This document shows positions 18,001 to 21,000 of a DNA stretch of 29,601 nucleotides, piece after piece. Source of the stretch: a virus (Duplodnaviria > Heunggongvirae > Uroviricota > Caudoviricetes); the IMG/VR virus record IMGVR_UViG_2657245500_000006, positions 1 to 29,601 of that record, one strand, 5' to 3'. Every line of letters begins with the position of its first letter. The first letter of the stretch is position 1. The position numbers were made by a program.

Positions 18001-21000
18001 CTTCAATTCAGGCGAATATGCAGATGCTTCTGTCCGGGGGCATGATGGCAAAGGCAAATCTCCTCAGGGGATGAGCATCAGGTATCGTTATGAGATAACG
18101 GATGAGATTGGTGTTATAACATCTTTTACATGGGCGCGTTCTATGACTAATGCGCAGGCATTTATTGATATTAACCCAGGAGATGAATCCAGAGAGGTTA
18201 AAAATCCGGCAGCTTCAGCGAGAACTGATATCAGGGCTAATTACTGGAGTCTACTATCCGGTCCTTCGTGGCGGTTTAACGAATACCTCAGTGTGTATGC
18301 AATGGCTGGTATGGGCGTAGCTAAAGTTACCGCTGACCTGAAAATTAAGGACAACATTAACAGTACCGGTGGATTTTCTGAAAGCAACAGTACGAAAAAA
18401 ACAGCACTTGCATGGGCTGCTGGTGCACAATTTAACCTGAATGAAAGTGTTGCTATGGATGTCGCGTATGAAAGCTCCGGATCTGGTGACTGGCGCACGA
18501 GCGGGGTTGTTGTAGGTATTGGCCTGAAATTCTGATCTGTATCCGACAACATGTCATAACCCGCTGTGATGGCGGGTTTTTTGTTGCCCGTGCAGGGCAA
18601 AAATCGTAGATTATGCGCGGGTGCCTTTCGGCTGATGGCTGGAGGGAGAACCTGAAGGCCTGATGTGGAAAGGCCCCGAGTCAACTTTAATGTTAACCCG
18701 AGGCCCTGACCGTACAACCTTCACAAGTAGTAGGTTAGCGCCTCTCCACTCAGGAGACAAGCGTTATGTCGCAAAAATCGCTCATCACCGTCACAATTTG
18801 TATGACGGTAATCTTCACCATCTGGATGTTACACGGCTCGTTGTGTGAGTTCCGGCTGAATTTGTGGGGAGCGGAGTTTGCGGCGTTCTTACAGTGTAAG
18901 CAGTAGGAAAACCGCGACGGGGACGAAAGTCCCCGTCAACTGGTTGCTGAGGTTCAGCCGATATGGCACCCGTTTCAGGTGAGAGAATGGACGACAAAAT
19001 TCTCCGGTATATGCAGCGTGTTGTGAGAAATTCCCGCAACCCTGAATTTATGAATGAAGTTAAAGACGCCTGCCTTAAAAAGCAGGCGTTTTGCTTTGAA
19101 GCGCCGGATGGTTTTCTGGTGCTGCGTTCTGTGCTCAGTGACGATGGTATCCCTTATGTTCTGGTGTTACTGGGCGTGTGTACGGGGAGTAAGAGTGTTG
19201 AGCGTTATCTGCCGGAGGTGAAGACATTAACCCGCCTGGCTGGCGGACGCTGGGCCGAATTTCATACGGCAAGACGAGGATTTATCCGGCTGGGAAAACG
19301 TCTGGGCTTTGAGCGAATGCCGGATGATGAGGATGGCTTCATGGTGTTCAGGATAGCAGTCTGACTGCCACTGTATTCATCATCGAGCGTAAACCCACAT
19401 TGCAATTCACATTCTGACCCTGCTCCGGCAGGGTTTTTTGTTATCTGAGGAGCCATTATGGGCGGAAGTAAAGGTGGTGGTGATACCAAAGTAAAACCAA
19501 CAGCAGCGCAAATAGCACAGGAAGAGGTGGCCTGGAAAGGGTGGCAGGATTACAAAAATATTCTCCGTCCGGCAGAAGATAACTTCATGAAAAAGGTCGA
19601 TGACCTTAACAGTGAGCAGCAGTACGAAAATATCGCAGGCACAACAAATCTTGGGTATCAGAAACAGTTTGGTGAAGCGCGAAGGGAGCTGGCGGGTAAT
19701 CTTGCTCAGTCCGGCGTTGACCCATCCAGTGGTCGTTTTAATGCAGTAATGGATGCAAATCAAAGCGACCAGGTGATCGGGCAGATTGACACGACCACAC
19801 GGGGGCAGGTATCGCAGGCAGATAAATATATTGCCGGGCTACAGGATGTTGCGGCTCTCGGTTCCGGTCAGAAGGCAGATGCGTTACAGAGTTTTAACTC
19901 GCTGGCAGACAGCAGTCTGGCAAAAGCTAAATCGGACGCACAGGCTGCGTTTACGAAACAGCAGGGGCGAGCCTCTCTTGTTGGCGCTGGTCTGGGTGCG
20001 GTTGGTGCATATGCGATGCATAAGGCTGGCGGTAGCGGAGGAAGTGGCGGTGCTAAAACACCTGGCACCGGCGCTAATGCCATTCAGCATCAGGCTCAGA
20101 ACTGGAGACTGTGATTATGGAGTACGGTAAATACGAAACTCTCGCAAGGGCTGGTTATTCAGGAGCAGCCCGCCCACAGGGTGACTGGCAGACGTCAGCA
20201 GCGCTGACACGCCAACAATACGACGACTGGCGAACCAGATATTTGCCCCGCGTGGCAAGGCTGGCTGACCTTGGCGAGAACAACAGCCTGATGAATGCGC
20301 AGCTTGCCCGGGTGGGCGGCCTTGCCACTTCCAGTCTCCGTACAGCGCAGATGGCGCAGGATAACCAGATGGCACGATATGGCGTTAACCGACCTGATAA
20401 TCCCAACAGTAATACGCTGGGGTTACGTAATGCCCTGGCAATTGCTGGCGCGAAAAATGGTATCCGTGAAGCAGAGCAGGATCGTCAGATGAACATACTG
20501 ACGGGGGCTTCTGCACCTGCAAGACAGCAACTGAGTGTTGGCGGACAACTGGTGTCAGCGTAAGGAGGAAATATGGGATACGGTTTACTGGATATTGCGA
20601 ATCAGTCACGGCGTGAGGCATTACAGGGAATAAGTGATGCAGACAGACGACGTGAAGAAATTGAGGCGTCAAACAAGATGATGGCGGCGCAACAGAAAGC
20701 ACAGCACAAGCAGAATATTGGAACGGGAATTGGTAGCGGTGCTGCTGTGGGGGCTGCCGTTGGTGGCCTTCCCGGTGCCGCTATTGGTGCAGTCATCGGT
20801 GGTCTTGCTGGTTCGTTGTTTTAAGGAGTGGTGAATGAGCGGATTTGCACAGGGGTTACTTGCCGGATTCAGCACTGTTGACCAGGCAATGACCCGTCGT
20901 AAGGAGCTTGGTTTGCGAGAAGCACAGCTTGCTCAGCAACAGAAAAATAACGAGCGCGATTTTGAGTTTGCGCAGTCGCAGTTTGAACATAATAAAAACG

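Follow-up and report, generated by a model that had tools for sequence, protein, structure and literature searches.

We analyzed a 29,601-nucleotide (nt) stretch of a phage genome (Caudoviricetes; positions 1 to 29,601 of IMG/VR record IMGVR_UViG_2657245500_000006), here called the window, and followed up a preliminary description, made from its sequence alone, of a hok/mok-type toxin locus next to lom. The locus is very probably a self-contained Hok/Sok-type type I toxin-antitoxin cassette, a moron of a Stx-type phage, that lacks mok and whose mechanism we model on its R1 homologue. As judged from sequence, the antisense Sok RNA of the locus is the RNA published as the precursor of 24B_1, a 20-nt RNA of phage Phi24B. 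The toxin gene has already been annotated and catalogued and is ordinary if taken alone. What goes beyond current annotation is the mok-less architecture, the missing terminator of the phage copies, the two hok loci in 933W-type phages, and the match of Sok to the 24B_1 precursor. All mechanistic steps given below are computational or borrowed from relatives. The features of the locus and its borders, numbered from the first letter of the window, are as follows.

18583 to 18971, plus strand: whole hok/Sok cassette, 389 bp from the -35 box to the fbi element, delimited by homology across contexts
18584 to 18612, plus strand: hok promoter, TTGCCC (18584 to 18589), 17-nt spacer, TAGATT (18607 to 18612), both hexamers kept across contexts
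18619 to 18625, plus strand: tac-like mRNA 5' end GGGUGCC, at position 1 of Rfam RF01794, pairing with 18965 to 18971 and invariant in the alignment
18663 to 18724, minus strand: predicted Sok RNA (5' end 18724, 3' end near 18663), from the mapped sokW, sokC, and sokB ends and hairpin strand bias
18663 to 18848, plus strand: frame first described as mok, present but not conserved in the locus comparison
18675 to 18695, minus strand: counterpart of the 20-nt 24B_1, apical loop and 3' arm of the Sok hairpin, mapped from Phi24B 45711 to 45692
18700 to 18703, plus strand: GAGG, relic of a mok Shine-Dalgarno (SD) sequence with no start codon after it, from comparison with R1 and control loci
18732 to 18760, minus strand: Sok promoter, TTGTCT (18760 to 18755), 17-nt spacer, TAACCT (18737 to 18732), positional homologue of the sokW promoter
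18738 to 18765, plus strand: predicted hairpin sequestering the hok SD, anti-SD CUCUCC (18742 to 18747) and SD GGAG (18753 to 18756), with conserved stems and a variable loop
18766 to 18906, plus strand: hok open reading frame (ORF), 46 amino acids, Hok/Gef family toxin (WP_000078907.1), from Pfam, PHROG, and substitution rates
18910 to 18946, plus strand: 3' stem-loop, a 9-bp GAAA hairpin (18916 to 18937) within an outer AACCG/UGGUU stem, from covariation
18955 to 18971, plus strand: fbi-like element UCAGCCG...GGCACCC, complementary to the mRNA 5' end, from folds and the conserved end-to-end duplex
18558 to 18583, plus strand: lom intrinsic terminator, left boundary, a terminator-like hairpin and T-run without counterpart in non-lom copies of the cassette
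18987 to 19364, plus strand: downstream gene (phrog_610), right boundary, PHROG profile aligning to residues 9 to 133

The hok ORF matched Pfam HOK_GEF (PF01848) at 33.2 bits against a cutoff of 22 (E value, 4e-8) and PHROG_251 over its full length (E value, 3e-24), and RefSeq enters it as WP_000078907.1, "Hok/Gef family protein." It is intact across E. coli, Salmonella, Citrobacter, and E. albertii, and the clade of 46-amino-acid relatives also includes Shigella. The ratio of nonsynonymous to synonymous substitution (dN/dS) had a pairwise median of about 0.28, with dN of 0 and dS of 0.30 between the window and phage 933W, values that point to purifying selection on the ORF. The identical peptide is entry 72_1589 (plasmid LRP157) of a toxicity panel (Escalera-Maurer et al., bioRxiv preprint, 2026) in which 42 of 45 homologues killed E. 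coli; the exceptions were 19_179, 60_1482, and 69_1540. The preliminary description had named a lack of Hok similarity, of toxicity, or of an antisense transcript as grounds for abandoning its assignment of an intact Hok/Gef toxin. The profile matches and dN/dS agree with that assignment, the first of these grounds is contradicted by the Pfam and PHROG matches, and the second is contradicted by the toxicity panel, where this peptide was in the tested set and the nontoxic sequences were three others. A tblastn search for a second Hok in the window gave only chance-level matches, such as 26317 to 26415 (E value, 0.05). Annotation of the ORF is inconsistent, with "MokW-like host killing" in NC_049917 (4259 to 4399) and "Hok/Gef family protein" from the Prokaryotic Genome Annotation Pipeline. 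In the original 933W, VT2-Sakai, and Phi24B records, the ORF is unannotated and the locus fills the blank gap between lom and L0129; none of the records examined annotates the antisense RNA.

Both promoters named in the preliminary description were recovered. The hok promoter lies where it had been placed, and its -10 box and mRNA start (GCGGGUGC...) aligned in register with those of hokW, hokC, and hokB. The candidate minus-strand Sok promoter is in register with the annotated sokW, sokC, and sokB promoters, and its cores, AGGTTAG and CAAG, were invariant in the alignment. The annotated 5' ends of these three antisense RNAs all map to 18724, and their 3' ends map to 18663 to 18669. A generic consensus promoter scan flagged neither promoter. 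The Rfam scan that had been proposed as a check gave a mixed answer. At gathering thresholds, there was no match in the window, and a search by E value surfaced the "sok" model RF01794, which is built in the hok-sense orientation, matching 18619 to 18777 end to end (model positions 1 to 157; E value, 2e-6) with 35.8 bits against a gathering threshold of 59.

Folding of the full-length RNA (18619 to 18971) gave a z score of -6.0, with 18619 to 18625 paired with 18965 to 18971 in the minimum-free-energy structure. The extended 5'-3' duplex (-23 to -36 kcal/mol) was kept in all 15 loci folded, and no more than 2 of 200 shuffles matched it. The duplex persists although no segment of the unit varies more than the 3' linker, and in Citrobacter the pairing is maintained through two-sided changes. 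RNAalifold on the 15 loci recovered a GAGGC/GCCUC target hairpin and also the 3' stem-loop, in which three pairs are supported by 4, 6, and 7 compensatory sequences. The core of that stem-loop, GACGGGGAC-GAAA-GTCCCCGTC, is a perfect 9-bp stem at 18916 to 18937. The preliminary description had put it at the 3' end of the locus; the hairpin is there and covaries, but it is not the 3' end of the unit, and inspection of the plus strand found no U-tract 3' of it. Read on the minus strand (18915 to 18938), the hairpin is followed by CGGTTTTCC and scores as terminator-like, and it might stop antisense transcription entering from downstream.

The Sok region folded better as antisense than as sense RNA (means of -28.1 versus -19.5 kcal/mol), the antisense strand being the more stable in 15 of 15 loci. 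That strand has a variable single-stranded 5' tail of 17 to 19 nt and then a strong hairpin, which is the Sok design. The leader facing the tail (18710 to 18721) is among the most variable segments, and the block shared by the Sok -10 box and the anti-SD is, with the fbi element, the most conserved. Across the 15 loci, the tail and its target (18706 to 18724) differ sharply between copies with identical toxins, for example, between the window and 933W. Because the tails diverge among such copies and genomes hold up to 9 cassettes, the alignment suggests that tail diversification avoids cross-talk between co-resident copies.

The leader and the mok reading frame

We compared 49 subfamily loci (23 distinct) with hokW, hokC, and hokB as controls. 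GAGG serves as the mok SD in R1, where the AUG comes 7 nt downstream, and in each control an ATG lies 8 nt past GAGGC and opens a frame that continues across the hok start. GAGGC is retained in the subfamily loci, but none of the 23 distinct loci has an ATG, GTG, or TTG 3 to 14 nt past GAGG, versus 3 of 3 controls. At the canonical mok AUG position, about 8 nt past GAGG, the window reads CGT/GTA. The frame at 18663 to 18848, which the preliminary description took for mok, is open in the window but is not conserved and does not start at the canonical position. With its ATG (at -103), it is open in only 3 of the 23 distinct loci and is closed in the 933W and Lyz12581Vzw copies, which are 92 to 95% identical. 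ORFs opened at the conserved GAUGUGG motif run from 1 to 79 codons across the loci, and 13 of the 23 have no start-initiated frame that reaches hok at all.

Other candidate leader frames were tried and rejected. An in-frame N-terminal extension of hok is closed by an invariant TAG at -30, within AGGTTAG. CTG starts as alternative leader ORFs are not conserved, nor is a GTG-NNN-GGT-TAG mini-ORF, which is present in 12 of the 23 loci and absent here. Across the 23 distinct loci, there was no conserved upstream ORF of any kind. From these comparisons, the subfamily is without a mok leader frame of the kind that the R1 paradigm calls for, and 18663 to 18848 is probably a chance ORF.

The antisense RNA and 24B_1 of phage Phi24B

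Nejman-Falenczyk et al. (2015; PMC4426718) found a 20-nt RNA, TAACGTTAAGTTGACTCGGG, in 2,223 sequencing reads after induction of Phi24B lysogens, placed this RNA (24B_1) at Phi24B 45711 to 45692 between lom and vb_24B_43, and predicted both its promoter, p24B_1 (boxes TTGACT and CGCTAACCT), and an 80-nt hairpin precursor. Between the window and Phi24B, this intergenic region has 91.6% identity, and the Hok peptide is the same in both. The window version of the 20-mer differs from that of Phi24B by one substitution and one inserted base (loop). p24B_1 maps onto the Sok promoter of the locus. The predicted Sok 5' end, derived from sokW, sokC, and sokB, lies 1 nt outside the start of the forward primer for the 24B_1 precursor, and the 80-nt precursor equals the predicted Sok plus about 20 nt. 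By position, strand, and promoter, the published 24B_1 precursor is the Sok RNA encoded here. The last of the three grounds named above, lack of an antisense transcript, is contradicted by the Phi24B reads, which come from the antisense strand at the same spot. Neither hok nor sok is mentioned in the 2015 and 2023 24B_1 papers (PMC4426718, PMC10732415) or in a 2025 review. Our literature search, which did not reach subscription journals or T1TAdb, returned no report of the locus, of hok without mok, or of 24B_1 in connection with hok, and this connection appears to be unreported.

The match changes what the published constructs contain. The 188-nt delta-24B_1 deletion (Phi24B 45585 to 45772) corresponds to window positions 18568 to 18754. 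Lost with it are the promoter and the complete leader of hok, some of the hok SD, and Sok together with its -10 box; the lom terminator is halved, its 3' arm and T-run being gone. Because the 3' arm and T-run are deleted, transcription from lom could continue in delta-24B_1 through the hok ORF, now without its promoter, and into later genes. The complementing or "overproducing" plasmid, according to the 2015 primers, carries 565 bp (Phi24B 45473 to 46037), which is the complete cassette with an intact hok. The 2023 paper describes pUC18_24B_1 as holding a 189-nt region; the 2015 cloning primers span the 565 bp with the whole hok ORF. The 24B_1 precursor binds Hfq with a dissociation constant of 25 nM, and lower ATP was reported in cells with the 24B_1 plasmid or prophage. 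A leaky membrane toxin could also be expected to lower ATP. The loop of the 20-mer differs among the window, 933W, and Lyz12581Vzw, which are otherwise conserved copies. Because the 20-mer is not conserved among such close copies, loop variability appears to fit a structural hairpin better than a trans-acting seed.

Cassette limits and genomic context

lom occupies 17804 to 18535 (Pfam Ail_Lom match). In BLAST comparisons and the alignment of P2-like, lambdoid, island, Salmonella, and Citrobacter copies, homology begins at ATTGCC and ends at GGCACCC. The limits first proposed for the locus, 18583 to 18940, held on the left and fell about 30 nt short on the right, where the conserved unit reaches 18971; the proposed insertion after the lom terminator and before the next late genes was borne out. 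We found the cassette in about 1,740 of 5,426 complete E. coli genomes, at up to 9 places per genome. It follows lom in Sepvirinae prophages and ogr in P2-like prophages, sits between gpJ and stf (the side tail fibre gene) in lambdoid prophages, and also occurs in islands. It is found in several unrelated prophage contexts and therefore behaves as a moron. The phage here is a short-tailed one of the Stx type (Sepvirinae), and the moron lies past its lom terminator and ahead of the next late genes.

The hok gene and the late operon share orientation. In every non-Sepvirinae context (including loci L010 to L014 and L017 to L022), a terminator lies 22 to 35 nt past fbi, and it is gone from the lom-adjacent Sepvirinae copies. 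These copies run directly into the next gene (window 18972 to 19000). The next plus-strand terminator candidates are at 19066 to 19098 and 19416 to 19435. The first, an 8-bp hairpin (ACGCCTGC...GCAGGCGT) followed by TTTTGCTTTG, is terminator-like on both strands and lies within the 5' part of the downstream gene; it could be the actual 3' end of the hok transcript in this phage. RefSeq starts the downstream gene at ATG 18963, overlapping the fbi element. ATG 18987 (125 amino acids) is probably the true start, as GGTGAGAG lies upstream of it and residue 9 is the first to align with the PHROG_610 profile.

Several copies depart from the usual arrangement. In E. coli STEC1590 (L015, 1501 to 3372), the lom-hok order is kept and is followed by a YadA-like adhesin gene, not the usual phrog_610 gene; homology ends directly after GGCACCCGTTT. 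Some Salmonella genomes carry a tandem duplication of the cassette, with the 46-amino-acid hok copies about 500 bp apart (starts 451 and 945/955), and in Salmonella locus L042, ATA replaces the ATG of the first hok copy. An alignment-based search for related loci returned only 7 species-level loci, 3 of them in records labelled outside Enterobacteriaceae. Contigs labelled Xanthomonas pisi, Planococcaceae metagenome-assembled genome, and Vagococcus sp. (L008, L009, and L011) hold E. coli/Salmonella-type cassettes with 76 to 100% protein identity, and these cassettes are most likely assembly contamination.

Proposed mechanism, alternatives, and known systems

By homology with R1 hok/sok, the hok promoter would give a stable mRNA starting near 18619, with its tac-like 5' end clamped to the fbi-like element at 18955 to 18971, and this closed form would bury the hok SD in its local hairpin. 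Trimming of the 3' end, a slow and activating step in the R1 paradigm, back to the stem-loop at 18916 to 18937 would allow the 5' end to refold onto 18672 to 18677, a change predicted to open the Sok target and partly free the hok SD. A Sok RNA of about 60 nt (18724 to about 18663) would then pair with the opened leader, the duplex would be cut (by RNase III in the R1 paradigm), and the anti-SD would be free to re-close the SD. Upon loss of Sok, the 46-amino-acid Hok would be made and the inner membrane depolarized. At induction, antiterminated late read-through would supply sense RNA and run against the convergent Sok promoter, which would make it a trigger. Predicted thermodynamically as means over the 15 loci, SD accessibility was 0.02 for the full-length RNA, 0.12 for the trimmed RNA, and 0.02 with the Sok target blocked. 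In the fold of the trimmed RNA, GAGGC (18700 to 18704) pairs with GCCUC (18740 to 18744), a stretch that overlaps the anti-SD. If the subfamily works without mok, Sok would therefore have to control Hok through mRNA refolding or a ribosome-standby site. A mok-independent route through refolding fits these predictions, and a standby role for GAGG is equally possible; the relic probably acts as a structural or ribosome-standby element covered by Sok. As to the role of the cassette, we suggest, with more doubt than confidence, that it modulates lysis and the energy state of the host as the phage develops; its sibling hokW-sokW has been shown to do so. Prophage maintenance and abortive infection, which the preliminary description put forward as roles, stay hypothetical.

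Several points weigh against a functional mok-less Hok/Sok cassette. Expression, RNA ends, processing, and native toxicity in this phage are all inferred. The SD is predicted to open only modestly, translation of hok without mok is a speculative mechanism, neither promoter reaches the level of a generic consensus scan, and the RF01794 score is below its gathering threshold. Because the post-fbi terminator is missing from Sepvirinae copies, the mRNA 3' end and the trimming step are uncertain here. In Phi24B, the antisense reverse transcription-PCR product was seen only 80 min postinduction and not in uninduced lysogens, unlike what is expected of a constitutive antitoxin; assay sensitivity or genome copy number could account for this late-only signal.

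We weighed these points together with three other explanations of the locus. In a canonical hok/mok/sok system, the frame at 18663 to 18848 would be a working mok, translationally coupled to hok and blocked by Sok; in the window, it is open and runs across the hok start, its ATG lies within the Sok-complementary stretch, and AAGG is found 4 nt upstream of that ATG. The same ATG is part of a conserved structural motif and is paired in both folds, CGT/GTA occupies the canonical mok AUG position, ORFs from equivalent ATGs range from 1 to 79 codons among loci, and stop codons close the frame in 933W, Phi24B, and Lyz12581Vzw, copies of 92 to 95% identity that encode the same peptide, all of which makes a working mok very improbable. 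The loss of mok might instead have made Hok untranslatable, leaving a decaying, nonfunctional relic that hitch-hikes. Such a relic would accord with the need for mok in Hok synthesis in R1 and with the reported inactivity of K-12 chromosomal hok loci, but we consider it very unlikely for a 46-amino-acid ORF that is intact, with dN/dS of about 0.28, across E. coli, Salmonella, Citrobacter, and E. albertii, in a cassette that maintains its promoters, tac/fbi pairing, SD hairpin, and 3' stem and is found in about a third of complete E. coli genomes.

The published account of 24B_1 implies a further alternative, that the region is primarily the gene for a trans-acting, microRNA-like RNA with d_ant and sdhB as targets and that the hok ORF is incidental or silent. 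The deletion and plasmid phenotypes, weak in vitro pairing with sdhB, and the ATP drop speak for it. The deletion took the hok promoter, leader, part of the SD, and half of the lom terminator as well, the complementing plasmid held the whole 565-bp cassette with an intact hok, and the ATP drop would also be given by a leaky membrane toxin. Moreover, 24B_1 corresponds to the loop and 3' arm of a hairpin of the Sok type, with a loop that varies among otherwise conserved copies, and the ORF is under purifying selection and encodes a peptide that is toxic according to the preprint panel. We regard this alternative as very improbable. Returning to the Hok/Sok cassette, we tentatively propose, with doubt slightly outweighing belief, that the phenotypes credited to 24B_1 are due to gain or loss of the Hok/Sok module, not to a microRNA, in a mok-less subfamily where Sok acts via refolding or standby.

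The 24B_1 deletion and plasmid work manipulated the whole toxin-antitoxin cassette and half of the lom terminator, which alters the reading of its results; if the Hok/Sok reading is true, this applies to the ATP drop, to the survival of cells, and to the balance between lysogeny and lysis. About one in three complete E. coli genomes holds a Hok subfamily without the mok frame that has been treated as obligatory, and this subfamily offers a natural test case for control of a toxin ribosome-binding site by an antisense RNA bound about 50 nt upstream.

The locus shares its intergenic region, strand, and promoter with 24B_1 (PMC4426718, PMC10732415) and differs in interpretation, 24B_1 having been taken by its authors for a trans-acting microRNA analogue. 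The ORF bears the label "MokW-like" in one phage record, but the 933W map and searches with the published primers excluded identity with the characterized hokW-sokW. In 933W, hokW-sokW lies at 58460 to 58734 on the opposite strand, about 13 kb beyond lom and near attR. The published hokW-sokW primers had no match in the window, and HokW has 51 amino acids and is 37% identical to the window toxin (BLASTP). Like the window locus, hokW-sokW (PMC8621323) combines a Hok-family toxin with a cis-antisense Sok and is carried by the same phages; the Sok -10 box TAACCT, the Sok 5' end position, and the GGGUGC mRNA start all align. Both systems also have an Hfq connection, through the 24B_1 precursor here and through SokW activity, which partly needs Hfq; -10 mutations have confirmed the sokW promoter (Takada et al., 2021; PMC8621323). 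Unlike the window locus, hokW has an in-frame mokW. By sequence comparison, Stx phages of the 933W, Sp5, and Phi24B type carry two Hok loci, and the published hokW-sokW deletion strains therefore still carried the lom-adjacent second hok and retained a Hok toxin.

HokA, which the preliminary description had called a close likeness, is only the nearest K-12 paralogue of the toxin (45% identity by BLASTP), with a common WM..SLCE...AAFL.CK core. The toxin scores 38.4 bits against the NCBIfam NF007290 equivalog cutoff of 89 and falls in a separate 60%-identity cluster (cluster 72) of the 2026 Hok survey.

The likeness to R1 hok/mok/sok (parB) extends to the tac/fbi end pairing, the protective 3' stem-loop upstream of fbi, the GAGG...GCCUC target hairpin, and the burial of the SD by an upstream CUCU tract. 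As in R1, a cis-encoded antisense Sok with a 5' tail and stem-loop lies in the hok leader under its own promoter, which overlaps the hok SD-to-ATG interval. The window locus differs in having no mok start codon, a toxin of 46 rather than 52 amino acids, no terminator just after fbi, and only 35.8 bits against the threshold of 59 in the Rfam model of such loci. There is no leader ORF in tisB/istR-1 and zorO/orzO, whose antitoxins pair with a long, structured 5' untranslated region that needs processing, at a site well upstream of the toxin SD; what they block is a ribosome-standby site and not the SD itself. Their toxins are unrelated to Hok, and their antitoxins are encoded in trans or divergently, in contrast to the window locus. 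By likeness to these two systems, a standby mechanism may also operate in the mok-less cassette described here.

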